IMG/VR virus record: IMGVR_UViG_2671180637_000024
Span: 1 to 26,029 of that record
Origin: a virus
Lineage: Duplodnaviria; Heunggongvirae; Uroviricota; Caudoviricetes
DNA length: 26,029 nucleotides
Direction: 5' to 3' (one strand)
The notes below the pieces were generated by a model. That model was not told the DNA's origin. It saw only the letters and a program-made list of their open reading frames with translations, and made no database searches. Positions within the stretch are counted from its first letter, which is position 1, and every line of letters starts with the position of its first letter. The position numbers and the translations under genes are program-made. Of this stretch, positions 1,536-24,558 are shown one piece after another.

Positions 1536-3158
1536 ATGCCGTTACCATTCCCCTTCGATTTTAAACATCCTGATTACCAGATGGTTTTTGAATGGCGGAT
1601 GGAACGCCTACAGCGCATTCGCCAGAATCCTGAAATATTGCCCGTATTGAAGCAGTTTTACCGAACCAATCCGGCTCAGTTCATCATCGACTGGGGCATG
1701 ACAACGGACCCGCGTAATATTGATTATGGCCTGCCGGTGACCATTCCGTTTTTACTCTTCCCTAAGCAGGAGGAGTGGATCCACTGGATTATGGAACGCT
1801 GGGGCAATCGGGAGAATGGTATTACCGAAAAATCCCGTGAAATGGGGCTCAGTTGGACCGCGATCGGACTGGCCTGCTCGCTTTGTCTCTTCAACAAAGA
1901 AATGGTTATCGGTTTCGGCTCCCGTAAAGAGGAATACGTCGACAGCACTGGTGACCCGAAAGCATTGTTCTGGAAGGCACGCAAGTTCGTGGAAACGCTA
2001 CCTGTAGAGTTTCGCGGTTCGTGGAGCGAGAAGAAGCACGCGCCATATATGCGTGTTGAGTTTCCTGAAACTGGTGCCGTTATCAAAGGCGAGGCTGGCG
2101 ATAATATTGGTCGTGGTGACCGTACCACGCTTTATCTGGTTGATGAGGCTGCATTCCTTCAGCGTCCTCTGCTGATTGATGCGGCGTTGTCACAAACGAC
2201 GCGTTGCCGTATCGACCTGAGTTCAGTTAACGGCATGGCTAACCCGTTCGCTCAGAAGCGTCATGGCGGGAAGATACCGGTATTCACATTCCACTGGCGG
2301 GATGATCCTCGCAAGGATGAAGAGTGGTATCGCAGGGAATGCGAGAAAATCGATAATCCGGTGGTGGTGGCACAGGAACTTGATCTGAACTACAGCGCAT
2401 CAGCGGAAGGCGTTCTGATTCCATCCGAATGGGTACAGGCTGCCGTTGATGCGCATATCAAACTGGGTATCCAGCCAACAGGCAAACGACTTGGCGCGAT
2501 GGATGTCGCCGACGAAGGCAGGGACAAAAATGCCTTTTCCACCCGTCATGGCTTCCTCCTGGAAAATGTGCGGGAATGGTCCGGTGTGGGCAGCGACATT
2601 TATCAGTCCGTCGAGAAGGTTTTCGGCTTTTGCGAACAGGACAACCTCGAAGAGTTTCGCTTTGACGAGGACGGGCTGGGCGCTGGCGTTCGCGGCGATG
2701 CACGCGCTATCAACGAACTGCGTAACGCTGCGCGTCGACCGTCAATACTTGCCACACCGTTTCGAGGTAGTGGCGCGGTATTTGATCCGGATGATGAAGC
2801 TGTTCGCGGGGACAACGGGCAAGCCGCACGTCTGAACAAGGACTTCTTCGCTAACGCCAAAGCCCAGAGCTGGTGGCGGTTACGTAAACTTTTTCAGAAT
2901 ACCTGGCGCGCCGTGGTTGAAGGTATGGCTTACAACCCGGACGAAATCATCTCAATCAGCAGTAGCATGGCACTCAAAGATAAACTCATCATCGAGCTTT
3001 CGCAGCCGACCTATTCCATTAATGGTGTGGGAAAAATCGTTATTGATAAACAGCCTGATGGAACCCGATCGCCAAACCTTGCCGACTCGGTGATGATCAA
3101 CTATGCCCCAATGAATTCAGCCCTGAACATCTGGGAGCTGCTAGGGAGACAGGCCTGA
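1536..3158 (+). CDS. terminase large subunit
   Basis: 540-aa product immediately after small terminase and before portal; contains ATPase-like and nuclease-like regions (e.g. [11 protein letters not shown] Walker-B-like stretch). Family assigned by size, synteny and motif recollection. Confidence 0.85.
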
Positions 3159-4624
3159 TGGCACGAAACAAACAAGCCCTGCGGCGAACTGCGCAGGCCA
3201 CAGCTGATGGTTATGAGAATTTTATTGCCCGCGTAGGGATACAGACGCCTAACCAGCACTCAGCATCGACCTACCGGGCTAACTTCACCAGCCGCAACCG
3301 CATGCTGGTGGAATGGTCCTATCGTTCGTCCTGGATCATCGGCGAAGCGGTCGACGCTATCCCGGACGATATGACCCGGAAAGGCATTCGCATCACTTCG
3401 GAGATTGACGCCAAAGACCGTGGCACCCTGGAAGCGCAGCTGGATGAGTTGCAGATCTGGGATGCGCTGAACGACGTGCTGAAATGGTCGCGCCTCTACG
3501 GCGGCGCGGTCGGCTTCATCATGATCGAGGGGCAGGCACCAATGACCCCGCTGCGGCTCGAAACCATTGGAGAAGGCAAGTTTAAGGGCATTCTCCCGCT
3601 CGACCGCTGGATGATTAACCCAGTCCTGACCCGCCGCATTAAAGAGATGGGGCCGGATCTCGGCAAACCTGAGTTTTACGACGTGGTGACCACTGCCACG
3701 GGCATTCCAGCCTGGCGCATCCATCACAGCCGCCTGATTCGCTTCGACGGGGTGACGCTGCCATTCCAGCAGAAGATGACCGAGAACGAATGGGGAATGT
3801 CGGTTGTAGAGCGTATCTGGGATCGTCTTACCGCGTTCGACAGCGCTACTGTCGGCGCGGCGCAGCTGGTCTACAAAGCGCATTTGCGTACCTACAGCGT
3901 GGAGAAGCTACGCGAGCTTATCGCACTTGGTGGTCCTGCGTATGAAGCGCTGCTGAAGAACATCGACCTGATCCGCCAGTTCCAGAGCAATGAAGGCATG
4001 ACGCTCATGGACTCGCGGGATAAGTTCGAAACCCACCAGTACAGCTTCAGCGGTCTGGATGACATTCTTTCGCAGTTCGCTGAGCAGATCAGCGGTGCCG
4101 TTGGTATCCCACTGGTGCGGTTGTTCGGACAGTCCCCGAAGGGATTTTCTACCGGCGATGCAGACCTTGCCAACTATTACGACCGGGTAAGCTCGTTGCA
4201 GGAGAGGCGTTTACGTCTTCCGGTGCGGCGGATACTGGACATCATGCATCGTTCGGAGCTTGGCAAGCCGCTGCCGGACGATTTCACGTTTGAGTTTAAC
4301 CCGCTCTGGCAAATGTCTGATGTCGATCGCTCAACGGTGGCGTTAAACACTACCAACGCAATCAGTACAGCGCTGGGTGATGGTCTGATGACACTGAAAG
4401 CCGCTATGACTGATTTGCGCGAAAATTCTGACGTAACCGGCATCGGGGCGTCCATTACCGACGAGGACATAGAGAATGCCGAAGACGAAGCGCCGCCAGG
4501 CATCAGCGAACTTGGCGACAAACCGCCAGAGTCGCCAGGCGGAGATCCGATATCGAACGAGCCTACGGCAGATAGCGCGGGCGGTCGGGGATATCGTAAA
4601 TGGTCGCTACGATGGTTCAAATGA
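3158..4624 (+). CDS. portal protein
   Basis: 488-aa product following large terminase with ATGA start/stop overlap; acidic low-complexity C-terminal tail; standard position for portal. Confidence 0.75.
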   Translation: MARNKQALRRTAQATADGYENFIARVGIQTPNQHSASTYRANFTSRNRMLVEWSYRSSWIIGEAVDAIPDDMTRKGIRITSEIDAKDRGTLEAQLDELQIWDALNDVLKWSRLYGGAVGFIMIEGQAPMTPLRLETIGEGKFKGILPLDRWMINPVLTRRIKEMGPDLGKPEFYDVVTTATGIPAWRIHHSRLIRFDGVTLPFQQKMTENEWGMSVVERIWDRLTAFDSATVGAAQLVYKAHLRTYSVEKLRELIALGGPAYEALLKNIDLIRQFQSNEGMTLMDSRDKFETHQYSFSGLDDILSQFAEQISGAVGIPLVRLFGQSPKGFSTGDADLANYYDRVSSLQERRLRLPVRRILDIMHRSELGKPLPDDFTFEFNPLWQMSDVDRSTVALNTTNAISTALGDGLMTLKAAMTDLRENSDVTGIGASITDEDIENAEDEAPPGISELGDKPPESPGGDPISNEPTADSAGGRGYRKWSLRWFK

Positions 4625-5249
4625 CAGTGTCACCGAAATAATGGATGCGCTGGAGCGCTACAGCGAAATCATCACCCCCTGGGCGACGAAGGTTGCTGAG
4701 AACTTTACCGCCGACATTGCACGCCAGAATGAAAAGCAGTGGCGTCAGCACAGCCGGAACATCAGCGCAGAGCTGCGCAACATGGTCGACCGCGCCCCGG
4801 TAGGCCAGGTGATGAAATCCATCGTCGCCGAGCAAATTAAGTACATCAAGTCACTGCCTCTTGAGGCCGCCGATCGGGTGTATGACATTCAGAACAAGGC
4901 CATCGAGGCCGTTGTGTCTGGTGGCCGCGCTGAACCATTCGCGAAAGAGATAGCAGCGTCCGGTGACGTGTCACGCTCACGAGCGAACCTTATCGCCCGT
5001 ACCGAGCTTGGACGTGCAACCGGCGCACTGGATCAGGCGCGTGCGCTGTCAATCGGCTCGAATGGTTATATCTGGCGTACAGCCGAAGATGGCGACGTCC
5101 GGCATTCTCATCGGGAGATGGAAGGTAAGTTTGTCGAATGGGGCAAACCTCCAACGCTTGATGGCATGACCGGTCACGCTGGCGAGCTCCCGAATTGTCG
5201 CTGTTATAAAGAAATCGTTTTTCCCAACCCTCATTCTTATCTCGCCTGA
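4476..5249 (+). CDS. minor head (head morphogenesis) protein, Mu F / SPP1 gp7-like
   Basis: C-terminal region with HSHREMEG…CRCY resembles Mu-F-like head morphogenesis proteins; follows portal. ATG at 4476 has a GAGGA Shine-Dalgarno 8 nt upstream, so I favour it although it overlaps the portal 3' end by 149 nt; alternative start is ATG 4641. Confidence 0.7.
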   Translation: MPKTKRRQASANLATNRQSRQAEIRYRTSLRQIARAVGDIVNGRYDGSNDSVTEIMDALERYSEIITPWATKVAENFTADIARQNEKQWRQHSRNISAELRNMVDRAPVGQVMKSIVAEQIKYIKSLPLEAADRVYDIQNKAIEAVVSGGRAEPFAKEIAASGDVSRSRANLIARTELGRATGALDQARALSIGSNGYIWRTAEDGDVRHSHREMEGKFVEWGKPPTLDGMTGHAGELPNCRCYKEIVFPNPHSYLA

Positions 5250-10051: not shown

Positions 10052-11197
10052 ATGGCACAGGGCTTGCCTGTATCAAACGTTGTTAATGTTGATGTGATCA
10101 TGTCGCCGCGTGCAGCATCAGGGCGAAATTTTGGTGCATTACTCATTCTCGGCCCATCCACAATCATTCCGGTAAGTGAGCGCATTCGCCGTTATTCTGC
10201 CGCGGAAGATATTGGAAAAGATTTTGGCGTGGAATCACCAGAATATAAGGCTGCGCAGGTGTTTTTCTCACAATCACCGAAACCTCAGGAGGTTTTTGTT
10301 GGTCGTTGGGTGAAAACGAAGGGAGACAGCGAACAGGCCACGCCTGAGACGCTGGAGCAGGCTGTGAATGCCATGCTCGATTATACTTCATGGTATGGGC
10401 TGGGGATTGCAGACGATGAAGATATTCCGGATGCAGACTGGCTGAAAGTGGCTGCGGCGATCGAATCCTCTTCTGTAAGCCGTATTCTGGCGATTACGAC
10501 AAGCGATGAGAAATGCCTGCAGACTGCATCCAGCGATGATTTGGCATCAAAACTGAAAACCGCCGGATATTCACGCAGTTTTATTCAGTATTCATCGGGT
10601 AATAAATACGCTGCGTTATCTGCATTTGGCCGGGCATTCACGGTTAATTTCAATGGCAGTAATACCGCGATTACGCTCAAGTTTAAGCAGGAGCCGGGTG
10701 TCGGGTATGAAACACTGACAGTCAGCCAGGCATCGGCACTTGATGCAAAAAACTGCAATGTGTTCGTGTACTACCAGAATGATACGGCTATCCTCCAGCA
10801 GGGAGTGATGGCTAACGGCGATTTCTTTGATGAACGCCACGGCCTGGACTGGTTACAGAATTATGTGCAGACCAGCCTCTATAACCTGCTTTATACCAGC
10901 ACCACGAAAGTTCCCCAGACTGAAGCCGGTATTACCCGACTGTTATCAAATGTTGAAAAATCACTGGATCAGGCCGTTCAGAATGGACTGATTGCTCCGG
11001 GCGTATGGAACGGGGGCGACCTTGGCCAGTTGTCATCAGGTGACACGCTGCCCAAAGGTTATTACGTATACGCCCAGCCGCTGGATGAACAGGCACAATC
11101 AGAACGTGAAGCCCGTAAGGCTCCGGTGATTCAGGCTGCAATAAAACTTGCAGGCGCGGTTCATTACGCTGACGTACAGATTAACGTTGTTCGCTAA
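10052..11197 (+). CDS. tail sheath protein
   Basis: 381-aa product directly upstream of a tube-sized gene, chaperone with frameshift and tape measure: the canonical contractile-tail order. Confidence 0.6.
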
Positions 11198-11207
11198 GGG
11201 GAAGTGA

Positions 11208-11648
11208 ATGTCTACCTATTCTTTTATGGATGTCACTGCGACGCTGACCAGGCCGACCGGTTCGATTGACCTCGGGTACGGTTCGGCAAGTTCTGAGGAG
11301 GGGATTGTGGTTGCGATGGGCGGTCCTAAAAACACCATGACCATCGGTGCTGATGGCGAAGTGATGCACAGCCTCCATGCAGATAAAAGCGGGACGATTA
11401 CCGTTAACCTTCTGAAGACATCACCGACAAATAAAAAATTGTCGCTGGCGTATAACGCACAGAGCCAGTCTTCTGCCACATGGGGGAATAACGTTATCGT
11501 GATCCGCAACAAGGTCAGCGGCGACATCATCACGGCACGCAGTGTTGCGTTCCAGAAACAACCGGATAACGCCAACGCTAAAACCGGTAATACGATGCCG
11601 TGGGTGTTTGACTGCGGCAAGATTGACCAGGTTCTCGGGGAGTTTTAA
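11208..11648 (+). CDS. tail tube protein
   Basis: 146-aa product between sheath and tail assembly chaperone. Confidence 0.55.
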   Translation: MSTYSFMDVTATLTRPTGSIDLGYGSASSEEGIVVAMGGPKNTMTIGADGEVMHSLHADKSGTITVNLLKTSPTNKKLSLAYNAQSQSSATWGNNVIVIRNKVSGDIITARSVAFQKQPDNANAKTGNTMPWVFDCGKIDQVLGEF

Positions 11649-11651
11649 TAC

Positions 11652-12104
11652 ATGGAATTCGAAATTAAAGGCGTGAAATATCGCGCGGCAAAACTCAGCG
11701 TTTTTGACCAGCTGAAAGTGACCCGTAAACTTCTTCCGGTACTGGCGGGAATGATGTCAGATTTCGGGAGCATTCGCTCCCGTTTGCCTGCTGACGGCAA
11801 AATCGACACCGTGAAATTCGAGCAGTTAAAACCGGTGTTTGAAACCATGCTCCCGCGTATCGCTGAGGAACTGTCTTCCCTGACCGAAGATGACACCGAT
11901 GCGATTATTCATCCCTGTCTTGCGGTGGTATCGCGGCGTCATATGGACGGATGGGTTCCGGTATTTACCCAGGGCGAACTGATGTTTGATGATATTGACT
12001 TGCTGGTCATGCTGCAGCTGGTGGCGCGGGTGGTCGCCGATTCGCTGGGAAATTTTTTGCCTACACCCCTTACCAGCACGACGCAGAGCCTGCAACAGGG
12101 CTGA
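11652..12104 (+). CDS. tail assembly chaperone (frame-0 product)
   Basis: 150-aa ORF directly upstream of the tape measure gene, with a slippery run AAATTTTTTG near its 3' end and an open -1 frame extension. Confidence 0.6.
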   Translation: MEFEIKGVKYRAAKLSVFDQLKVTRKLLPVLAGMMSDFGSIRSRLPADGKIDTVKFEQLKPVFETMLPRIAEELSSLTEDDTDAIIHPCLAVVSRRHMDGWVPVFTQGELMFDDIDLLVMLQLVARVVADSLGNFLPTPLTSTTQSLQQG

Positions 12105-12292
12105 CGTTTAACAGCCTGCCGGACGGGCTGTCCTACCTTCTCAATCCGGTTGACGCCGGGTTAATTCCTTATACAGCACTTAAAGATGGCTCTGTCGATT
12201 TGTACGATATTGCTCTTTTGAATGACCATCTGGCGGTAAAAGCGGATAACCAGCGGCGCATTGAGAAATGGAGAGAGGATAATGAACGCTGA
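12050..12292 (+). CDS. -1 frame extension of the tail assembly chaperone (predicted programmed frameshift product, G-T type)
   Basis: The frame shifted by -1 is open from the slippery heptamers A_AAT_TTT (12050-12056) / T_TTT_TTG (12053-12059) to TGA at 12290-12292, encoding …TFNSLPDGLSYLLNPVDAGLIPYTALKDGSVDLYDIALLNDHLAVKADNQRRIEKWREDNER; it has no start codon of its own. Confidence 0.45.
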   Translation, partial: KFFAYTPYQHDAEPATGLTFNSLPDGLSYLLNPVDAGLIPYTALKDGSVDLYDIALLNDHLAVKADNQRRIEKWREDNER

Positions 12293-14270
12293 AACTATTA
12301 AAGATTTCCTCGTCTCGCTTGGCTTCAGTGTGGATGATGCAGGAGCGAAAAAGTTCGGTTCTGTCCTCGCCGGTACAACTGCAAATGTCATCAAAATGGG
12401 GCTGGCCGTTGAAGGAGCCGCGCTGTCCGTGGTGGCCTTCACGGCTAAGATCGCCTCCGGTCTGGATAATCTTTACTGGGCGTCACAGCGCACTGGAGCG
12501 ACAGTCCAGGGAATTCAGTCTATTGGCTATGCGGTTTCGCAGGTTGGCGGCAGCGTGGACGCTGCGCGATCTTCTCTGGAAAGCCTCTCCCGGTTTATTC
12601 GTAATAATCCCGGTGCAGAGGGATTTCTGAATCGCCTGGGGGTACAGACACGGGATGCCAGCGGTAACATGCGTGACATGGCCGCTATTTTTACAGGTGT
12701 AGGCCAGAAGCTCAGCGGCATGCCGTATTACCGGGCTAACCAGTATGCGCAGATGCTGGGCATTGACGAAAATACCCTTATGGCGATGCGTCGGGGTGTG
12801 GGTGGTTTCTCCGGGCAGTACAGCGCAATGGCGAAAGCTATCGGCTTCAATGCTGACGAGGCGGCCAGAAGCTCCAACAAATTTATGACCTCCCTGCGTG
12901 AGTTTAGCGCGATGGCAGGCATGGCCCGTGACAAAATCGGCTCTAATCTTGCGGGTGGACTTGCGGGGTCGCTGGACACCCTGCGCCGCCATATCCTGGA
13001 CAACTTCCCGCGCATCGAGCAGACTCTGACGAAAGCCATAAAAGGCATTCTGGCGCTCGGGGATATTATCGGGCGGCTGTTCTTCAGACTGATTGAGGGG
13101 ACATCAGGCCTTATCACCTGGTGGCAATCGCTGGATAAGCAAACGCGGGAGTTGATCTCGCTGTTTGGCGCACTGACGATTGCGCTGCGCATTCTGAACA
13201 GTACGTTCTGGATGTCGCCGATTGGCCTCATTACCGCGCTGGCGGCGGGGATTGCCCTCCTGTGGGAGGACTATCAGACCTGGAAGGAAGGCGGCGACAG
13301 CCTGATTGACTGGGGCAAGTGGAAACCGGAGGTCGATGCCGCGCTGAAGATGGTTCGTGACCTTAAAACAACCGTTAACGACCTGGTGAAAGCGCTGGCG
13401 AAACTGCTCAATATTGACCTCAAATCATGGTCCCTGAAGTGGGATTTCAGCAACTTCATCGACCAGATGGGCGAATTCAGCAAAATGCTGAACATGATCG
13501 CCGACCTGCTCAACGCTATCAAAGATGGCCGCTGGGCTGATGCCGTCAGCATCGGCAAACAGATACTTAATCAGGGCAGCGAAAATCCGTCAGCGATGCC
13601 GATGGTTACAGACAGCGCTAACAGTACTGCCGACTGGATTAAAGAGCACTGGGGATTCGATCCCCGCAGCGTGGGCCGGACGGTACGCGGCTGGTTTGGT
13701 GATGATGAGCCGGAACAACATGCACAGGCTACGAAACGAGGAGAACGGAATAACAATCCGGGAAACCTTAATTTTGCTGGTCAGGCAGGGGCTTCTCTTG
13801 AACGCCCGGGCGGGCGATTTGCCAGATTTGAAACTGCCTTTGATGGATTACGGGCTCTTGCTCGTCAGTTAATGCTGTACGCCGGACGGGGAATAAACAG
13901 TGTGGAGAAAATTATCTCTACCTGGGCACCTGCGTCTGATAATAACAACACAACTGCGTATATCAGGGCTGTATCGCAACGACTGGGAGTGGATCCCCGG
14001 GCTGCCCTGAATATGAGCGATCCGCAAACCATGTCAGCATTGATGAGCAGCATTATCCAGCATGAAAATGGAAGAAATATCTATTCTCGAGAGCTGATTA
14101 ATAAGGCTGCCGTGGCGGGAATTAGTGGCAAAATGACAGAGGTTAACCAGCAAAATACTTACCACATTTACGGTGGCGGAGATCCGCACGCTGTCGGTAA
14201 TGAGGTTGCACGTCGGCAACAGTCTGCAAATGCTCAGGTCATGCGAAGTAATCAGGTGAGGGTGGGTTAG
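12282..14270 (+). CDS. tail tape measure protein
   Basis: Long helical protein rich in A/G/L/S/M after the chaperone/frameshift pair; ATG at 12282 preceded by GGAGAGAGG is the likely start (ORF track start 12261). Confidence 0.8.
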   Translation: MNAETIKDFLVSLGFSVDDAGAKKFGSVLAGTTANVIKMGLAVEGAALSVVAFTAKIASGLDNLYWASQRTGATVQGIQSIGYAVSQVGGSVDAARSSLESLSRFIRNNPGAEGFLNRLGVQTRDASGNMRDMAAIFTGVGQKLSGMPYYRANQYAQMLGIDENTLMAMRRGVGGFSGQYSAMAKAIGFNADEAARSSNKFMTSLREFSAMAGMARDKIGSNLAGGLAGSLDTLRRHILDNFPRIEQTLTKAIKGILALGDIIGRLFFRLIEGTSGLITWWQSLDKQTRELISLFGALTIALRILNSTFWMSPIGLITALAAGIALLWEDYQTWKEGGDSLIDWGKWKPEVDAALKMVRDLKTTVNDLVKALAKLLNIDLKSWSLKWDFSNFIDQMGEFSKMLNMIADLLNAIKDGRWADAVSIGKQILNQGSENPSAMPMVTDSANSTADWIKEHWGFDPRSVGRTVRGWFGDDEPEQHAQATKRGERNNNPGNLNFAGQAGASLERPGGRFARFETAFDGLRALARQLMLYAGRGINSVEKIISTWAPASDNNNTTAYIRAVSQRLGVDPRAALNMSDPQTMSALMSSIIQHENGRNIYSRELINKAAVAGISGKMTEVNQQNTYHIYGGGDPHAVGNEVARRQQSANAQVMRSNQVRVG

Positions 14271-14857
14271 TGGATATTCTCTCTACACTTTTTCATCAGC
14301 AGAGCAGAAAAATAGGAATGATTGTTCCCAGTGTTGTTATTTCAGAGAAGCATACAGATATGCTTGAAATAACAGAGCATCCGGTAGAGGTTGGGGCCGC
14401 TGTCGCTGATCATGCCTATAAAAAACCGTCAGAAGTGGTGATGGAGGTTGGTTTCGCCGGTGGCGGCGCATTGCTGGATTTTGCCAGTAATCTGACGGCT
14501 ACCAGCCTGCTCGGCCTGAGTCCTCAGCAGACGTATCAGGAGCTACTGGATCTGCAGGAAAGCCGTATCCCCTTCGATGTGGTAACCGGTAAACGACTGT
14601 ACAGCAACATGTTGATCCGGGCGTTGGAAGTGACGACGGACAAGACAACCGAAAACGTCCTGTCCGCCGTCCTCACCCTGAGGGAGGTCATTATCTCCCG
14701 GACACAGCAGATTACCGTCGCGGATAAAACCAACATGAAGGAAGGGGCCAGCACGTCGGCGGTACAGAACAGCGGCAACAAAACCACAAAGCCTCCAGAT
14801 ACTTCACTGCTGAAAAGCATCACGGGTAACGTGGCGTCATTACTGGGGGGCGGCTAA
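14270..14857 (+). CDS. tail/baseplate assembly protein
   Basis: 195-aa ORF starting with GTG overlapping the tape measure stop (TAGTG), with GAGGGTGGG upstream; function inferred from position. Confidence 0.5.
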   Translation: MDILSTLFHQQSRKIGMIVPSVVISEKHTDMLEITEHPVEVGAAVADHAYKKPSEVVMEVGFAGGGALLDFASNLTATSLLGLSPQQTYQELLDLQESRIPFDVVTGKRLYSNMLIRALEVTTDKTTENVLSAVLTLREVIISRTQQITVADKTNMKEGASTSAVQNSGNKTTKPPDTSLLKSITGNVASLLGGG

Positions 14858-15159
14858 TGACAATTCAGGAAATTCCGCTGACAGCGGACAACCAGCAGTT
14901 CAGCATCGTCCTGGGGGGTGTCACCTGGCGGATTAGCATCATATGGCGCGATCTGTACTGGATTATGGACCTGCAGAACGACAGAGGGGAGCCGGTAATC
15001 TCCGGTATTCCTCTTGTCACTGGTGCTGACCTGCTGGCGCAGTACGCCTGTATGGGGCTTGGTTTTAAGCTGGTGGTGGTCTGTGATGACAACACACAGG
15101 ATTACCCCACAAAAACTGACCTGGGCGGTCGCAGCCATTTACTGGTATCAACGGAGTAA
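14857..15159 (+). CDS. small tail/baseplate protein
   Basis: 100-aa ORF with TAATG overlap to the upstream gene. Confidence 0.5.
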   Translation: MTIQEIPLTADNQQFSIVLGGVTWRISIIWRDLYWIMDLQNDRGEPVISGIPLVTGADLLAQYACMGLGFKLVVVCDDNTQDYPTKTDLGGRSHLLVSTE

Positions 15160-15161
15160 GC

Positions 15162-16223
15162 ATGTCACAGAACTGGATGAGACATTTCGAGCTGCAGCTT
15201 GTGGACGGGAACGGTCAGGGAATTGAGCTAAGTGATTTCAAAGTCACCTTTACGATCGACTGGTTCAACATCAGCAGCGCGTCCCGGGTAGGGACTATCA
15301 AAATTTATAACCTCTCGGCAGATACTGTGAACCGAATTACCGGGCAGGAGTTTTCGAAAGTGCGTCTGATTGCGGGTTACGACGGTATCGCGCCGGAGGG
15401 GTCGGCAAGCGACGTCGGGACAGTGCGGGAAGTTGACGCGGCGGACGTGGGCCAGAGTGATGGTCGCAACTACGGACTGATTTTCAGCGGTGAAATTCGC
15501 TACTCGGTCACAGGAAAAGACAGTCCGGTTGATTCCTACGTCCTGATTCAGGCAGCAGATACTGATCTGGCTTTTGCCACCAGTATAACCTCACAGACGC
15601 TGGCTGCCGGTTACACGGTCGCTGATGTGAACCGTGCGCTGATGAAAGACTTCGAAGCCAAAGGTGTGACCGAAGGCCTGACGCCTGAAATGCCTGCTAC
15701 TGTATTCCCCCGGGGGCGGGTACTCTTTGGCATGACGCGGCATCTAATGGATAACGTAGCCGGGCAATGTGGCGCAACATGGCAATTCGTGGACGGTCAG
15801 CGCCAGATGGTGGCGAATAACGAATATGTTCATGAAGCGATTGTGCTCAACAGCGCTACCGGGCTTATTGGCATGCCGCAGCAGACTATCGGTAACGGCG
15901 TAAACGTCCGCGCGCTTATTAATCCGAACATCCGGGTTAACGGACTTATTCTGCTGGATCAGGCTTCCGTGTATCGTACTGCCTTGTCGAACAACGATAT
16001 TGCGATGGCTGGTGGTCAGATCACCGACCAGAACACGGATGGAAATATCACGCTAAGCGGCACCACATCGCAGCCTGCCAGCATCGCAACGGATGGCGTT
16101 TATATTGTGCGCGGGATTATGTACACTGGCGACACAAGGGGCCAGGCGTGGTACATGGATATGATGTGCGAAGCGCGTGGCGCGGCGGATCTGTATACGC
16201 GATCGGCTTTGCAAAGGGGATGA
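15162..16223 (+). CDS. putative baseplate hub protein (P2 gpD / Mu gpP-like)
   Basis: 353-aa product between tape-measure-proximal genes and baseplate spike; size and position match hub proteins of P2/Mu-type tails. Confidence 0.55.
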   Translation: MSQNWMRHFELQLVDGNGQGIELSDFKVTFTIDWFNISSASRVGTIKIYNLSADTVNRITGQEFSKVRLIAGYDGIAPEGSASDVGTVREVDAADVGQSDGRNYGLIFSGEIRYSVTGKDSPVDSYVLIQAADTDLAFATSITSQTLAAGYTVADVNRALMKDFEAKGVTEGLTPEMPATVFPRGRVLFGMTRHLMDNVAGQCGATWQFVDGQRQMVANNEYVHEAIVLNSATGLIGMPQQTIGNGVNVRALINPNIRVNGLILLDQASVYRTALSNNDIAMAGGQITDQNTDGNITLSGTTSQPASIATDGVYIVRGIMYTGDTRGQAWYMDMMCEARGAADLYTRSALQRG

Positions 16224-16226
16224 GCA

Positions 16227-16568
16227 ATGAGGGGTATTATTTTTCTGTTAGCTGTCTTTTCTGCGTGCAGCGCGTGGGCGGATGGCTTCACGGTTAAATG
16301 CGGTGGCTACACTATGGTTGCAAACCAGGGCGAGTTATCGACTATCAACGGTGAAAGAGTTACCTCTCAAAAAATCACCGAACTGGGTACCAATGGTTTG
16401 AAAGTAGACATGGGGCTTATGCCTGCCAAAGACGGTAACAACTACGGCTTTGAATACATTCGTCGCCCTGGTACCGAAACGCGATTCCTGAATGTCCAGC
16501 TTCTGCAGAACAGCATGGATGCGCCGAAAATCATCGGATCTTTCCCTTGTAAAAAAGTGGCTGGGTGA
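16227..16568 (+). CDS. small exported protein (signal peptide; possible lipoprotein)
   Basis: N-terminus MRGIIFLLAVFSACSAWADG: hydrophobic core then either an AXA signal peptidase I site (AWA|D) or a lipobox-like FSAC; 113 aa; no structural-protein character. Confidence 0.55.
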   Translation: MRGIIFLLAVFSACSAWADGFTVKCGGYTMVANQGELSTINGERVTSQKITELGTNGLKVDMGLMPAKDGNNYGFEYIRRPGTETRFLNVQLLQNSMDAPKIIGSFPCKKVAG

Positions 16569-16661
16569 AGGTAACCTGAAATTCGTAACGCCTGAAAAAC
16601 AACAAAATGTGCTCTAAAAACTGTTGTTTTTTGAGACGAGCGATTACACTGCACTGACTTT

Positions 16662-16688
16662 TTGATGGTGGATTGCCATCGATATGCT
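16662..16688 (+). promoter_or_regulatory. candidate sigma70-like promoter for the accessory cassette
   Basis: TTGATG (16662-16667), 15-nt spacer, TATGCT (16683-16688), about 30 nt upstream of the cassette start codon; weak match, spacing suboptimal. Confidence 0.3.
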
Positions 16689-16717
16689 ACTTCATTAAAG
16701 CCAGGAATAACTAAAAC

Positions 16718-17449
16718 ATGAGTTTAGCGCAGCCAAAATCAGGAGAACTGTTAGATCTTCTGACTCCTTCATTAACTAAGGGTGAAAACCTTCTGAGTGA
16801 GTTTGAAATCCATCGAATCATTCGTGAAGCGAAGAAACTACCTGAACGTTATCAGGGGCTATCAATTGAAGGCTTAGCTAAGCTTGTTCTTGGTGAAATA
16901 GATGAAGGATGTTCACTCTGTGAGCGGGGGTTGAGAATAGCGCCTAACGATCCAGTTTCTTTTTGTAACTATACGATTGCGCTGCGTAACTTAGGTTTGC
17001 ATGCTCGCCAGTATGTGATGATTCAGAAAGCATCTGATTCACTTAATCCAACGATATTGGCTGAGGTTGCTACAATTTCTGCATACTGGGTTGATATCGA
17101 TTTGCTTGAAAAGGTGATGCCGATGCTAACTGCAATGGAAGTACCGCGCCCTGAAGATATGGGCAAATGGTATGACACGCTCAATTATCTGCATACCCAA
17201 AAAGATCATGCTCAGGAGCTAAAAACTATTGGGCGGCTCATGATGAACGTTGCAGAAAAGTACCGCGCTCGTCTTGCTGGCGCTCATGCTTTTTATGTAA
17301 TGTCAGAACTTGATACGCTGTTCGTTGAAGTCAAAACAGACGATCCAGTGCTTCTTTCGCAGATGAATAATGCCTTGGCTGATGAGATTATTATTGCGGG
17401 GCTTGCGGATTCAGAATGCGTCGGATGCTTTGAAGCCGGGGAACTCTAA
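16718..17449 (+). CDS. accessory cassette gene A: hypothetical helical protein (243 aa), candidate partner of the HEPN-like protein
   Basis: Clean ORF with AGGA upstream; lower GC than flanking tail genes; predicted mostly helical with a TPR-like stretch (GLRIAPNDPVSFCNYTIALRNLGLHARQ); no nucleotidyltransferase GS…DxD motif seen. Stop overlaps gene B start (TAATG). Confidence 0.6.
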   Translation: MSLAQPKSGELLDLLTPSLTKGENLLSEFEIHRIIREAKKLPERYQGLSIEGLAKLVLGEIDEGCSLCERGLRIAPNDPVSFCNYTIALRNLGLHARQYVMIQKASDSLNPTILAEVATISAYWVDIDLLEKVMPMLTAMEVPRPEDMGKWYDTLNYLHTQKDHAQELKTIGRLMMNVAEKYRARLAGAHAFYVMSELDTLFVEVKTDDPVLLSQMNNALADEIIIAGLADSECVGCFEAGEL

Positions 17450-17877
17450 TGTCGGTTGAGCATACCTGTTTTCTTGAATTGGCTAAGCATTCCCTGGCTC
17501 TAAACGGTGAGATGTGGACGAGAAATGCTATTAGCCGAGCATACTATGGTATGTACCATTCCGCCTTACGGATCACCAACAATCTGGTACCGACCGCTAC
17601 ACAAGATGGTGAAAAACTAAAAGGTGGAGTTCACATGCGAGTCTATACGGCCTTTTGTAGTGGTGAGGCAGCTGCACTTAACGATGTTGATGTTAACGCA
17701 GTAAAGAAAATCGGCGTTAAACTGAAAATGACGCATGCCCAACGTGTTAATTCTGATTACAAGCTTGAGCGGAAAATCAACCGGATTACCGCGAGAAGTG
17801 TAATTCTGGATGCGGAAGAGGTCGATGCAATCGTTAATCAATTACTGAAGATTGGTGATGACTCGTTAACTGCATAA
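17449..17877 (+). CDS. accessory cassette gene B: HEPN-like domain protein (142 aa)
   Basis: Contains SRAYYGMYHSALR (aa 29-41), GGVHMRVYTAF (aa 59-69) and RVNSDY (aa 99-104) followed by an acidic C-terminal helix; this matches my recollection of the classical HEPN consensus (SRAYYAMFHAAKALL … H … R..ADY). Assignment is from memory, not an HMM hit. Confidence 0.6.
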   Translation: MSVEHTCFLELAKHSLALNGEMWTRNAISRAYYGMYHSALRITNNLVPTATQDGEKLKGGVHMRVYTAFCSGEAAALNDVDVNAVKKIGVKLKMTHAQRVNSDYKLERKINRITARSVILDAEEVDAIVNQLLKIGDDSLTA

Positions 17878-17941: not shown

Positions 17942-18694
17942 ATGGCAGTATCTGACCAGACCCGCAGCGGCGACCTTGCCGAAACATTTAAATCCGAACA
18001 GGAAACAACAAAGAACCAGATCCGTGTCGCCTTGCCTGGCATTGTTCAGTCATTCGCTCCTGATGCGGTGACGGCGGTTGTACAGCCTGCTATCCGTTAC
18101 GTTGAAATTGATAACGACGGCAACCGCATTACCAAAAATTACCCATTGCTGGTGGATGTGCCAGTGGTATTCCCGCGTGGCGGAAGCTGTACGCTAACGT
18201 TTCCAGTTAAAGCCGGTGATGAATGTTTGGTGATTTTTGCCGATCGTTGTATTGATTTCTGGTGGCAGAGTGGCGGGATACAGGAGCCGGTCGATGACAG
18301 AATGCATGATTTATCGGATGCGTTTTGTATTGTCGGTCCCCAGTCGCAGGCAAGGAAGATTAGCGGTATTAATACCAGTGCCACACAGTTGCGTAGTGAT
18401 GACGGCAGCACCTATTTTGAGCTTAATCCTGATACCAGGAAAATTAAAATTGTCGCTCCGGGGGGCCTTGATGTGGTTGCCCCTCTGGCTGATTTTTCTG
18501 AGAAAGTAACCATTCATGGCCTGTTAACCTGGATGGGAGGCATGGTGGGGTCTGTTGTTTCTGGTGTGGCTTCAAAAATCACTGGTGCTGTTGAGTTTTT
18601 GGGTAGCGTGAAGGCTAACGGCAAGCCAATCGATGATACGCACACTCATGGTGGTGTTCAGCGCGGTGGAAGCAATACCGACGGAGTAAACTGA
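17942..18694 (+). CDS. baseplate spike / assembly protein V-like
   Basis: 250-aa product with glycine-rich C-terminus, directly upstream of W- and J-like baseplate genes (V-W-J-I order of P2/Mu-type baseplates); GGAG Shine-Dalgarno. Confidence 0.65.
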   Translation: MAVSDQTRSGDLAETFKSEQETTKNQIRVALPGIVQSFAPDAVTAVVQPAIRYVEIDNDGNRITKNYPLLVDVPVVFPRGGSCTLTFPVKAGDECLVIFADRCIDFWWQSGGIQEPVDDRMHDLSDAFCIVGPQSQARKISGINTSATQLRSDDGSTYFELNPDTRKIKIVAPGGLDVVAPLADFSEKVTIHGLLTWMGGMVGSVVSGVASKITGAVEFLGSVKANGKPIDDTHTHGGVQRGGSNTDGVN

Positions 18695-20923: not shown

Positions 20924-21717
20924 TGGCGAAAAATGACTTTAAAGCGTTTGCAACTGATCGAAATGCCAATGTTATGTCGCAGGAGGAATGGGAAGCGTTG
21001 CCTGCGCTTTTATCCGGATTTACAGCAGGGAAAGCATCCAGTGCGCAGGTGAACAAAGCCATTCGACAGGCCAGCTTTATTGCTGCAGCTTTGGCCCAGT
21101 TTGTAAGTGACAAAACGCAACGGGATGTGCTTGATAATGGTGATCTGCCCGGTTTTGTTGAATTGCTTGGATCGGGGTTTGCTGTTGAATACCTGAGCCG
21201 CAAAAATCCGTTTGGCGATATCAAATCGGACGGCACAGTGAAAACGGCTCTCGAAAACCTTGGTTTGGGAGAAGGTGCCCCAGCTATTGGCGTTCCGTTC
21301 TTCTGGCCCTCCGCGGCAATGCCAAATACTGTAATCGACAGCTGGTCCGGTATGGTGTTTTTGAAGTTCAACGGGGCGAAATTTTCTGCCTCTGATTACC
21401 CTGTGCTGGCGAAAGTGTTTCCTTCGCTGGTATTACCTGAAGCCCGCGGTGATTTCATTCGTATCTGGGATGACGGGCGAGGTGCAGATGGTGGTCGCGA
21501 ATTATTAAGCTGGCAGGAAGCTACAAACTTTTCTCAGTTTGCCGGGAATATAGGCGGAGGTGCGGGACACGCAATTAACTTTCATGATGGCATTGCCGGA
21601 AATCAGCCAGGATTTTCACGATTTAATTTCACCAGTAACTCTGTGGGTGATGGTGTGAATTTTGTTGCTGTCAGACCGCGAAATATTGCATTTAACTTTC
21701 TGGTGAGGGCTAAATAA
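20923..21717 (+). CDS. tail fibre protein (constant N-terminal part plus currently expressed variable C-terminal part)
   Basis: Precedes a tail fibre assembly gene; contains the left hix/gix-like crossover site in-frame at 21248-21273. ATG 20923 (ATGA overlap, GGGGAG upstream) preferred over ATG 20905. Confidence 0.7.
21248..21273 (+). repeat. left recombination (crossover) site of the invertible tail-fibre segment
   Basis: CTCTCGAAAACC-TT-GGTTTGGGAGAA resembles the hixL site as I recall it (TTCTTGAAAACC-AA-GGTTTTTGATAA); present in inverted orientation at 22994-23019. Confidence 0.6.
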
Positions 21718-22310
21718 TGAAACCTGTTTTTGATAAAAATGGGCTGGCTACAGTGCCGGGCGATATGCGTTGTTTTTATTATGATGCTGAAACATCTGAG
21801 TATACGGGCTGGTCTGATGAATATATTAATACTGGCGTAAGTATGCCCGCCTGTTCCACTGGTATTGACCCGGGCGAAAACATTCCGGGGAAAGTGGCAG
21901 TATTTACGGGTAAGGGATGGAGCCATGAAGAAGACCATCGCAATGAGACTGTTTACTCAACAGAAAATGGCGCAGCTGTTACAGTGGATTATATCGGTGC
22001 CATCAAAAACGGTTATGTCACGCTTTCACCGTTAACGACATATGATAAATGGGATGGTGAGAAATGGGTGACAGATACTGAGGCACAGCATAACGCCGCA
22101 GTAGAAGCAGCAGAAGCACAGCGCCAGTCACTGATTGATGCAGCAATGGCTTCCATTAGTCTGATTCAGCTGAAATTACAGGCCGGACGGAAACTGACTC
22201 AGGCAGAAACAACCCGACTTAACGCCGTGCTGGATTACATTGACGCGGTGACGGCAACAGATACCAGCACCGCGCCGGATGTCATCTGGCCTGAACTGCC
22301 GGAGGCGTAG
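21717..22310 (+). CDS. tail fibre assembly protein (expressed orientation)
   Basis: 197-aa product following the tail fibre gene with TAATG coupling; C-terminal TSTAPDVIWP motif shared with the oppositely oriented copy. Confidence 0.75.
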   Translation: MKPVFDKNGLATVPGDMRCFYYDAETSEYTGWSDEYINTGVSMPACSTGIDPGENIPGKVAVFTGKGWSHEEDHRNETVYSTENGAAVTVDYIGAIKNGYVTLSPLTTYDKWDGEKWVTDTEAQHNAAVEAAEAQRQSLIDAAMASISLIQLKLQAGRKLTQAETTRLNAVLDYIDAVTATDTSTAPDVIWPELPEA

Positions 22311-22710
22311 GCCATTCAATATCGGGTGCTGTTGACGTATCAACACGCATCAGCAGCACACGGTATTTCTTCCATTGGGTGAGAGCTGTAGCTTCTTCAT
22401 CAGTTGCGATATCAGCATCAACAGCATCCTGATGCCAGGATATTTCACTGTCAGCTTTTTCCCGTAATTGGGATTTTTTAACTTCAGCAATAGCTATTAA
22501 TTCCTTTTTGGTCGGCTGAGGAATATCTATCAGTGCTGGTTTTCCATTCAGTGTTCCAATCTGTTTTCCTGGTGGAATATCCATAAATAACTTTTTATGT
22601 TCTTCCTCACTGACTATTAAACCATCATCAGGCCACAGACCTGATGCCTCAAATTTTTCTTTCTCCGATATGGGGAAAAAGCCATTTGCTTTAGCGCTCC
22701 ATACGTACAT
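22282..22710 (-). CDS. alternative tail fibre assembly protein (silent orientation)
   Basis: 142-aa minus-strand ORF converging on and overlapping the + strand tail-fibre assembly gene by 29 nt; C-terminal TSTAPDIEWP motif; directly follows the alternative fibre segment. Confidence 0.7.
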   Translation of the reverse strand: MYVWSAKANGFFPISEKEKFEASGLWPDDGLIVSEEEHKKLFMDIPPGKQIGTLNGKPALIDIPQPTKKELIAIAEVKKSQLREKADSEISWHQDAVDADIATDEEATALTQWKKYRVLLMRVDTSTAPDIEWPTPPAVQAR

Positions 22711-22711
22711 A

Positions 22712-23005
22712 TCAATACCCCACCGCTATAATGTCCACATTAAATCCCCCGGGACCTGCCTGCCAGATGCTGGCCCCTGTTAATGATTTTGTTTGATGAA
22801 CAACCGCCACATTTGCTGGCGATAGTGTTTCAGTTGTTACAGTACCGATATCATTCCAGTTAATTGAGATGGAATAGTTCGTTGTTGTAAACGACCGGGG
22901 GAAAGTTATGTGTCTTGCATTGGTGCCAACAGGAAATCCAAGATAAACACGCTGAATTATCATTCCTCCAGGTAACATAACCCAGTTAGCACCTTCTCCA
23001 AAACC
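22712..23005 (-). CDS. alternative tail fibre variable C-terminal segment (promoterless; expressed only after inversion)
   Basis: Minus-strand frame …GFGEGANWVML… aligns with the + strand fibre at …GLGEGAPAI… exactly at the crossover site; inversion at the 2-bp core would give an in-frame fusion to the constant N-terminal 113 codons. Confidence 0.6.
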   Translation of the reverse strand, partial: GFGEGANWVMLPGGMIIQRVYLGFPVGTNARHITFPRSFTTTNYSISINWNDIGTVTTETLSPANVAVVHQTKSLTGASIWQAGPGGFNVDIIAVGY

Positions 23006-23019
23006 AACGTTTATGAAAA
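22994..23019 (+). repeat. right recombination (crossover) site of the invertible segment
   Basis: TTCTCCAAAACC-AA-CGTTTATGAAAA; its reverse complement matches the left site over TTGGTTTnGGAGAAGGTGC (19 of 20). Confidence 0.6.
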
Positions 23020-23073
23020 TGCAGAAATAACGAGCAAATGGCATCATTCCTGCTTTTGTCAGGGAGATCTACC

Positions 23074-23628
23074 ATGCTTATTGGCTATGTACGTGTGTCA
23101 ACAAATGACCAGAACACAGATCTACAACGTAATGCGCTGAACTGTGCAGGATGCGAGCTGATTTTTGAAGACAAGATAAGCGGTACAAAGTCCGAAAGGC
23201 CGGGGCTGAAAAAACTGCTCAGGACATTATCGGCAGGCGACACACTGGTTGTCTGGAAGCTGGATCGGCTGGGGCGCAGTATGCGGCATCTTGTCGTGCT
23301 GGTGGAGGAGTTGCGCGAACGAGGCATCAACTTTCGTAGTCTGACTGATTCAATTGATACCAGCACACCAATGGGACGCTTTTTCTTCCATGTGATGGGT
23401 GCCCTGGCTGAAATGGAACGTGAACTGATTGTTGAACGAACAAAAGCAGGACTGGAAGCTGCTCGCGCACAGGGACGAATTGGGGGACGTCGTCCCAAAC
23501 TTACACCAGAACAATGGGCGCAGGCCGGGCGATTAATTGCATCAGGCGTTCCTCGCCAGAAGGTGGCGATCATCTATGATGTTGGCGTATCGACTTTGTA
23601 TAAGAAGTTTCCGGTCGGAGATAAATGA
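23074..23628 (+). CDS. site-specific DNA invertase, serine recombinase (Hin/Gin/Cin/Pin family)
   Basis: N-terminus MLIGYVRVSTNDQNTDLQ with the catalytic serine context, plus C-terminal HTH GRRPKLTPEQ…VGVSTLYKKFP, closely matching Hin/Gin as I recall them; ATG 23074 with AGGGAG upstream (ORF track start 23038). Confidence 0.9.
   Translation: MLIGYVRVSTNDQNTDLQRNALNCAGCELIFEDKISGTKSERPGLKKLLRTLSAGDTLVVWKLDRLGRSMRHLVVLVEELRERGINFRSLTDSIDTSTPMGRFFFHVMGALAEMERELIVERTKAGLEAARAQGRIGGRRPKLTPEQWAQAGRLIASGVPRQKVAIIYDVGVSTLYKKFPVGDK

Positions 23629-23688: not shown

Positions 23689-24558
<870 letters not shown>

Follow-up and report, generated by a model that had tools for sequence, protein, structure and literature searches.

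The stretch of DNA analysed here, hereafter the window, comprises positions 1 to 26,029 of the IMG/VR record IMGVR_UViG_2671180637_000024 (Caudoviricetes) and is a complete late-gene module of a temperate myovirus, a SEN34/Brunovirus-like prophage of Escherichia coli. Between the tail tube and tape measure genes of this module lies gene G, which encodes a tail assembly chaperone and, close to its 3' end, carries three overlapping slippery heptamers that are followed by a long open -1 frame. This arrangement is conserved among diverged relatives, and we propose, with a probability of about 0.88, that it serves a ribosomal -1 frameshift that would produce two chaperones, G and a longer fusion, GT. 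The features of the locus, all on the + strand, are the following.

10052-11197, + strand: sheath gene (DUF3383, phrog_205), upstream of the tube gene
11208..11648, + strand: tail tube gene, 146 amino acids (aa), directly upstream of the chaperone gene (Pfam KPP10_Orf10, E 8e-60; named DUF3277 by the Prokaryotic Genome Annotation Pipeline, PGAP)
11652..12104, + strand: gene G, tail assembly chaperone, ATG at 11652 and TGA at 12102-12104, zero-frame product of 150 aa and 16.7 kDa
12028..12035, + strand: Shine-Dalgarno (SD)-like GGGTGGTC, candidate 5' stimulator, complementary to the 3' end of 16S rRNA (GAUCACC)
12047..12059, + strand: slip site G_GGA_AAT_TTT_TTG, three overlapping in-phase X_XXY_YYZ heptamers (12047-12053, 12050-12056 and 12053-12059)
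12056..12292, + strand: T segment, the -1 frame extension with its stop codon TGA at 12290-12292, 78 codons after a slip on A_AAT_TTT and 77 after a slip on T_TTT_TTG
12128..12292, + strand: stand-alone coding sequence (CDS) of a 54-aa 'DUF6889 family protein' with a CTG start, called by PGAP in near-identical E. coli genomes in RefSeq (L001 2421-2585)
12282..14270, + strand: tape measure gene of 662 aa, lytic transglycosylase-like in its C-terminal region (phrog_2276, E 2.5e-282; 'lytic transglycosylase' in PGAP)

In the frame of the chaperone, the sequence at 12047-12059, GGGAAATTTTTTG, is read as G GGA AAT TTT TTG. The first-pass annotation of the window had named two slippery heptamers within its 3' part (12050-12059, AAATTTTTTG), and both of these, A_AAT_TTT at 12050-12056 and T_TTT_TTG at 12053-12059, are indeed present and in phase for a -1 tandem slip; the extent it gave to the site was too narrow, missing a third in-phase heptamer, G_GGA_AAT, at 12047-12053. 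These three are the sole in-phase heptamers within the last 150 nucleotides (nt) of G. From 11999 onwards, no stop codon interrupts the -1 frame until the TGA at 12290-12292, situated 11 nt within the tape measure gene; counted from the first T of the run, at 12053, this gives 79 codons, in agreement with the length of about 79 codons reported before. Two distances had to be amended: the slip run precedes the G stop codon by 42-45 nt rather than 46 nt, and the apparent gap between G and the tape measure gene (12105-12281), which is coding in the -1 frame, is 177 nt long and not 178 bp. The predicted fusion GT joins 11652..12056 to 12056..12292, for a protein of 213 aa and 24.0 kDa. The only canonical start codon in the -1 open reading frame (ORF), TTG at 12200, is located within a conserved domain. 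The end of T also contains the SD sequence of the tape measure gene (GGAGAGAGGA, 12270-12279), along with the first 11 nt of that gene from its ATG at 12282.

The T run as such is unremarkable, with 31 T6 runs in the window compared to 24.5 expected. The 13-mer of the slip site is unique in the window, where 0.06 occurrences are expected if up to one mismatch is allowed, and the -1 frame stays open for at least 79 codons at just 4.9% of the in-gene codon positions (the median is 9 codons). The genes of the + strand contain 25 in-phase heptamers altogether, and a long -1 ORF follows only the three at the slip site and one more, G_GGG_GGC at 14845-14851. The latter is situated just 5' of the stop codon of the gene at 14270-14857, and the -1 frame, open for 104 codons, enters the next gene (14857-15159). 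This is probably a coincidence of neighbouring gene frames; a relative of this heptamer, G_GG.G_GG.U, showed the lowest frameshifting in an E. coli reporter series (PMC4066793). The evidence that the window alone provides for the slip site is moderate and only suggestive; it is the comparative data that place the site far beyond chance.

An earlier scan of viral sequences yielded 80 loci that are 95-99% identical and hence uninformative on conservation; 76 of these carry T6, and the other 4 fall outside the search pattern. A scan of one genome per species yielded 76 loci from Enterobacterales, with 47-86% protein identity, representing Enterobacter, Citrobacter, Pantoea, Erwinia, Photorhabdus, Serratia, Rahnella, Arsenophonus and other genera. 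With phages Mulock, SEN34 and YP3 and the window added, 77 loci were analysable, and positional entropy was calculated over 76 unique sequences. All 77 loci contain an in-phase TTTTTTN located 33-48 nt before the G stop codon, and among the slip-site heptamers, T_TTT_TTN alone is universally conserved; A_AAT_TTT is intact in 72 loci and G_GGA_AAT in 68. The 5' part of the site is lost in five loci (L135, L144 and L150-L152), where T_TTT_TTN alone remains, and in two of these (L144 and L151), it is the only usable heptamer because a -1-frame stop codon lies directly 5' of the T run. The third codon positions of the slip site are nearly frozen (entropy of 0.41 bits for GGA, 0.00 for AAT, 0.00 for TTT and 0.55 for TTG), compared to about 1.0-1.7 bits at most third positions of equally conserved codons upstream; the synonymous position of GGA is kept in 93% of the unique sequences and that of AAT in 100%.

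Immediately 3' of the T run, the variation shifts its three-base periodicity out of the zero frame and into the -1 frame, with entropies of 0.75, 0.62 and 1.36 at the first, second and third codon positions of the -1 frame in the T region. The ratio of nonsynonymous to synonymous differences (pN/pS) in the -1 frame is 0.39 past the G stop codon and 0.53 in the overlap with the tail of G, whereas the other two frames of the same nucleotides yield 1.2-1.3, and the zero frame of G over the overlap yields 1.23. Therefore, selection acts on T and not on the last approximately 15 codons of G. The T extension consists of 78-81 codons in 75 of the 77 loci. A tape measure start was found in 67 loci, in which its ATG and the T stop codon overlap by 4-22 nt, most often (49 loci) by 11 nt. 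T has no start codon that is conserved: the first ATG, GTG or TTG in the -1 frame occurs anywhere from codon 9 to codon 61 or is absent. The two exceptions in length look like decayed prophages, one with the T extension shortened to 39 codons (L118) and the other with 258 codons that run into unrelated sequence (L134). Another decayed copy, in Apirhabdus (L092), has gene G broken after 47 codons.

Membership in Pfam families was judged by the curated gathering thresholds, and both parts of the predicted fusion score above them. The G product matches Phage_TAC_15 (PF21822; E 2.8e-31, 109.1 bits against a cut-off of 22) and phrog_1688, 'tail assembly chaperone' (E 8.5e-62); together with the position of the gene between the tail tube and tape measure genes, as is typical of the G/GT arrangement, this match upholds the chaperone identity assigned in the first-pass annotation. 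The translation of T matches DUF6889 (PF21829; E 1.2e-20, 70.6-73.4 bits against a cut-off of 23.9), with the match mapping to 12167-12283, and phrog_4364 (E 1.8e-23), mapping to 12131-12289. The earlier explanation of the gap by a frameshift is in line with this match as well as with the pN/pS values of 0.39-0.53 and the coding character of the -1 frame. No NCBIfam family was matched. An AlphaFold2 model of the fusion, built from an alignment of 8 fusion sequences (predicted local distance difference test score, pLDDT, 78; predicted template modelling score, pTM, 0.72), places an α/β G domain at residues 1-137 and a three-helix T domain at 160-212, both modelled with confidence and connected by a disordered linker (144-155). 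The modelled G part resembles predicted structures of viral 'tail assembly chaperones' (Foldseek E 2e-8); no similar solved structure was detected, the best hit of a PDB sequence search with the fusion having an E value of 0.79. Collectively, the comparison of loci and the domain matches support the view that DUF6889 is the T domain which the frameshift would add to Phage_TAC_15 chaperones.

An exhaustive profile search retrieved several distant cluster representatives (30-41% identity, 191-210 aa) in which both domains are encoded in one ORF. The predicted GT is colinear across the junction with two such single-ORF proteins, P0143 (E 7e-30) and P0238 (E 3e-22), with "LGNFFAYTP" in GT aligned to "LHGYFSYTP" in P0143; in the P0143 contig (65% G+C), the ORF is unbroken and there is no slippery heptamer. 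Among the distant relatives examined at the level of the locus, one encodes a single fused Phage_TAC_15+DUF6889 ORF without a slippery heptamer (L162 1038-1664). Two others possess a short TAC_15 gene and a separate long TAC_15+DUF6889 gene (L163 510-983 and 4001-4633; L164 3499-3993 and 4001-4630), where the short and long chaperones come from two genes in place of recoding; a BLASTP comparison of the short and long paralogues of L164 detects no similarity. In a Logan assembly of this prophage type, T7 replaces T6, and the exact predicted 213-aa fusion is encoded (P0001, L161 1897-1910). Three further sequences, P0003, P0017 and P0066, which include one NCBI cluster with 67% identity, continue in the +1 frame and presumably carry T5. 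These variants of run length are probably homopolymer errors in assemblies or mutations, although some may be real phase-like variants, and they only confirm the frame arithmetic.

The anatomy of the locus and its conservation are direct observations, as are the purifying selection in the -1 frame and the natural in-frame fusions, and together they support a scheme in which G and the -1 ORF that fills the apparent gap form one chaperone unit of the G/GT type. Most ribosomes would read to the G stop codon and produce the 150-aa chaperone, and a minority would slip back by 1 nt on GGGAAATTTTTTG and go on in the -1 frame, producing the 213-aa fusion made up of the G core (residues 1-135 or 1-136), the disordered linker and the helical DUF6889 'T' domain. 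The slip would consist in tandem re-pairing in the P and A sites, by tRNA-Asn and tRNA-Phe on A_AAT_TTT or by tRNA-Phe and tRNA-Leu on T_TTT_TTG. Either route would give a product of the same length that differs at residue 136 alone (F or L), with the predicted junctions ...SLGNFFAYTPYQ... or ...SLGNFLAYTPYQ....

Systematic reporter assays in E. coli class V_VV.A_AA.R, H_HH.U_UU.Y and some others as efficient heptamers, and the hierarchy of A-site tetramers is A_AAG >> U_UUC > U_UUU, with U_UUG barely above background (1.8-3.6-fold; PMC4066793). A_AAU_UUU belongs to the efficient class because it falls within H_HH.U_UU.Y, and U_UUU_UUG and G_GGA_AAU lie outside. The slip is expected on the T run, chiefly with tRNA-Phe in the A site on A_AAT_TTT where this heptamer is present, and otherwise on T_TTT_TTG or T_TTT_TTT, and the overlapping heptamers may offer successive chances to slip. 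The shift appears to be driven mainly by the slippery sequence, possibly with the assistance of the SD-like GGGTGGTC located 11-17 nt upstream. By analogy with lambda G/GT and P2 E/E+E', the G parts would coat the tape measure protein, and the T domain of the rare fusion would recruit the tube protein and start tube polymerisation, with neither G nor GT ending up in the virion.

Several rival explanations can be weighed against a ribosomal shift. The same fusion would be made if RNA polymerase occasionally added an extra U on the T6 run, so that G and T would share one frame in a minority of the mRNA and be read normally. This would account for a conserved core that is a homopolymer, T6 or T7; it would be mimicked at the DNA level by the T7 variant (L161/P0001), which yields the exact in-frame fusion; and its protein product (GNFFA...) would be identical to the ribosomal one. 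However, productive bacterial cases of transcriptional slippage occur on about 9 A or T (PMC5009743), and a run of six is short of this; furthermore, GGGAAA is conserved 5' of the run, in the X_XXY_YYZ phase, in 68-72 of the 77 loci, and the polymerase needs no such extension. Given the short run and a phased conservation that has no role in slippage, we consider this explanation unlikely, and the identical T_TTT_TTG of P2 is annotated as a translational frameshift. It is quite improbable, too, that the DUF6889 ORF is an independent small gene translated from a weak or non-canonical start (CTG 12128 or TTG 12200) into a free protein of 30-54 aa. It is called as such by PGAP, in the form of the 54-aa 'DUF6889 family protein' of near-identical E. 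coli prophages, and phrog_4364 is a family of 54-aa stand-alone calls, but the CTG is not conserved, Glu being present at that residue in most homologues, and the first canonical starts are scattered across the loci. Moreover, coding-type selection starts directly at the T run, 5' of every candidate start, the DUF6889 match begins before TTG 12200, the sole canonical start available in the window, and distant relatives have DUF6889 only fused to TAC_15. Finally, the open -1 frame and the slippery run might be a coincidence or a decayed relic that yields no expressed product, given that T6 runs are common in the window and that a -1 frame of such length is found at about 5% of positions. Such an origin is hardly conceivable for an arrangement that 75 of 77 diverged loci keep, with purifying selection in the -1 frame, frozen synonymous sites and a product that matches a Pfam family at E 1e-20. 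The comparative data effectively refute it, and the synonymous divergence among the loci (pS about 0.66-0.69) speaks against a single recent horizontal sweep.

Ribosomal frameshifting at this locus, which we favour over these explanations, has to be reconciled with several points that weigh against it. That the shift takes place on the ribosome, how efficient it would be and which partners the products would bind is what we infer. The universal conservation of T_TTT_TTN points in the direction opposite to that of the reporter data, T_TTT_TTG not being an efficient motif in E. coli. The amino acids G-N-F-L are themselves conserved, so that part of the nucleotide conservation could reflect protein constraint, although this would leave the frozen synonymous positions unaccounted for. 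There is no conserved structure 3' of the site, where a stem-loop or pseudoknot stimulator would be expected to begin about 5-9 nt past the heptamer: RNAalifold applied to 24 diverse loci gave -0.39 kcal/mol with 2 invariant pairs (no explicit pseudoknot search was made), and the z-scores of the minimum free energy of the 60 nt downstream average +0.56, with 0 of 74 loci below -2. Two further points concern the candidate 5' stimulator: the conserved R-V-V encoded at this element confounds the SD-like signal, and in P2 the same motif is placed at a spacing that is not expected to stimulate a -1 shift.

As regards RNA folding in the window itself, the downstream sequence has a z-score of 0.07, and its first stem begins 20 nt downstream. 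A fold of 201 nt that pairs 12017-12033 with 12063-12076 around the slip site was dismissed because, while the shift takes place, its 5' arm would lie within the ribosome or immediately behind it, in addition to the weak z-score of -0.67. The SD-like GGGTGGTC precedes the three heptamers by 11, 14 and 17 nt, and among 74 loci, its position is the strongest mean site of anti-SD duplex formation in the 210 nt scanned, with an energy of -10.65 kcal/mol observed versus -6.29 kcal/mol for synonymous recodings. The energy is below that of the locus's own recodings in 65 of the 74 loci and in the lowest 10% in 50 of the 74, in a set of phylogenetically related loci some of which miss the motif. P2 contains GGTGGTC, the same as at 12029-12035 of the window, 2 nt upstream of its T_TTT_TTG (L165 2670-2685), and Val-Val is encoded in both phages. 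Because the loci share descent, R-V-V is conserved and the P2 motif is at 2 nt, a role of the element as a 5' stimulator is only suggestive, and the signal may reflect the Val-Val motif alone.

A wider scenario, which is possible but which we regard as doubtful, is that the site is a structure-independent, 5'-assisted cassette, in which three heptamers would offer three slip chances and GGGUGGUC would pair with the 3' end of 16S rRNA, and that the Phage_TAC_15/DUF6889 family has repeatedly switched among a frameshift, a fused ORF (L162) and two genes (L163, L164). If true, this repeated switching would serve as a natural experiment on the importance of the G:GT ratio. The relatives with a fused ORF or two genes could, in any case, help test the need for both forms.

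The late-gene module that surrounds the locus starts with the terminase small and large subunits, followed by the portal, head morphogenesis, protease/scaffold, major head and neck proteins and the sheath; after the sheath come the tube, the 150-aa tail assembly chaperone, the tape measure, and the baseplate and fibre genes. Over 11208-12700, E. coli prophages as well as Escherichia phages vB_EcoM-606R2 and relatives share 97-99% identity with the window; the identity is 84% for Yersinia phage YP3 and 77% for Salmonella phage SEN34 (genus Brunovirus), and this prophage region is present in 368 of 5,426 complete E. coli genomes. Elsewhere in the module, the first ATG of the head-morphogenesis ORF (4476-5249, phrog_324) would produce a 149-nt overlap with the 3' end of the portal gene (3158-4624), and the true start probably lies further downstream. 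Between the baseplate hub gene (15162-16223) and the gene for a spike-like protein (17942-18694; PF18352 and the GpV Apex motif), there are three ORFs of 113, 243 and 142 aa (16227-17877) that have no Pfam match and belong only to PHROGs of unknown function. Two convergent Caudo_TAP tail-fibre assembly genes, at 21717-22310 (+ strand) and 22282-22710 (- strand), adjoin an inverted C-terminal fragment of a tail fibre gene (22712-23047, - strand; Gp53-like_C) and a serine recombinase gene (23038-23628, + strand; Resolvase+HTH_7), and the entire segment 21717-23628 looks like a host-range switch of the Gin/Cin invertible type. Just beyond this tail-fibre/invertase module, a 274-aa protein with a LEM-3-like GIY-YIG nuclease domain is encoded at 23689-24513 (- strand).

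The 213-aa fusion is missing from RefSeq, and the T stretch carries no annotation in SEN34, YP3 and the vB_EcoM phages. The stand-alone CDS that starts with CTG 12128 is apparently an artefact of the unrecognised frameshift because the CTG is not conserved (Leu here, Glu in most homologues). A literature search found DUF6889 mentioned in no paper; its identification as a T domain would provide a role for a domain of unknown function and a correction of database records.

With respect to known systems, the locus of Klebsiella phage Mulock (MN098327) is a true homologue with 58% identity in G that carries the same GGGAAATTTTTTG and the same -1 ORF ending in ...KWREANER. Its records are annotated as 'tape measure chaperone' and 'frameshift product', with a joined CDS of 617 nt that is consistent with a -1 shift; this annotation is bioinformatic only. 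In phage lambda, the slip site is G_GGA_AAG, and the first heptamer of the window, G_GGA_AAT, is its close relative. In both phages, the chaperone gene is located between the genes for the major tail (tube) protein and the tape measure protein, and the low-level -1 shift of lambda, near the 3' end of G, leads onto an ORF without a start codon, an arrangement like that in the window. The functional model proposed here is borrowed from lambda, where the partner of G is the tape measure protein, that of T is the tube protein, and neither G nor GT ends up in the virion (PMC5009743). Unlike the window, lambda is a siphovirus, and its chaperone belongs to a different protein family; the A-site AAG of lambda (tRNA-Lys) is efficient in E. 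coli, whereas the G_GGA_AAU of the window is not in the efficient class, and the universally conserved element is here the T run. Sites of the dnaX/IS911 type share with the window a stretch complementary to the anti-SD sequence within 6-17 nt upstream, the range scanned by Sharma et al.; dnaX differs in having a strong 3' hairpin, an A_AAA_AAG site and a shorter shifted product, whereas the window shows no conserved 3' structure and the SD-like element is only a candidate.

The nearest experimental precedent is P2 E/E+E' (Christie et al. 2002, cited in PMC5009743), where a programmed -1 frameshift occurs within the FETUD tail operon; the mechanism proposed for the window, a heptamer and the gene slot are shared with it. 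P2 has the same myovirus order of sheath (FI), tube (FII), E/E+E' and tape measure (T) genes, an in-phase T_TTT_TTG (L165 2679-2685), with the frameshift site marked at 2686 in GenBank, and a -1 extension that reaches only slightly into the tape measure gene (by 8 nt in P2 and by 11 nt in the window). Nevertheless, P2 E+E' and GT show no detectable sequence homology (BLASTP E 1.5), and they differ in size (91 and 142 aa for E and E+E', 150 and 213 aa in the window), in the slip site, which in P2 is a single T_TTT_TTG preceded by GGT and lacks the GGGAAA extension of the window, and in the distance of the slip site from the zero-frame stop codon (18 nt in P2, 42 nt in the window). The first-pass proposal of a G/GT-type -1 frameshift agrees with every prediction that could be tested at the sequence level: position, protein families, slip-site conservation, selection, colinearity and precedent. 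The site appears to represent a well-known mechanism of tailed phages, already annotated in one homologue, and leaves the understanding of that mechanism unchanged. The G/GT arrangement is conserved in long-tailed phages (Levin 1993; Xu 2004, 2013, 2014; reviewed in PMC5009743), and to this rule, the locus would add another protein family and a slip-site variant with three heptamers.

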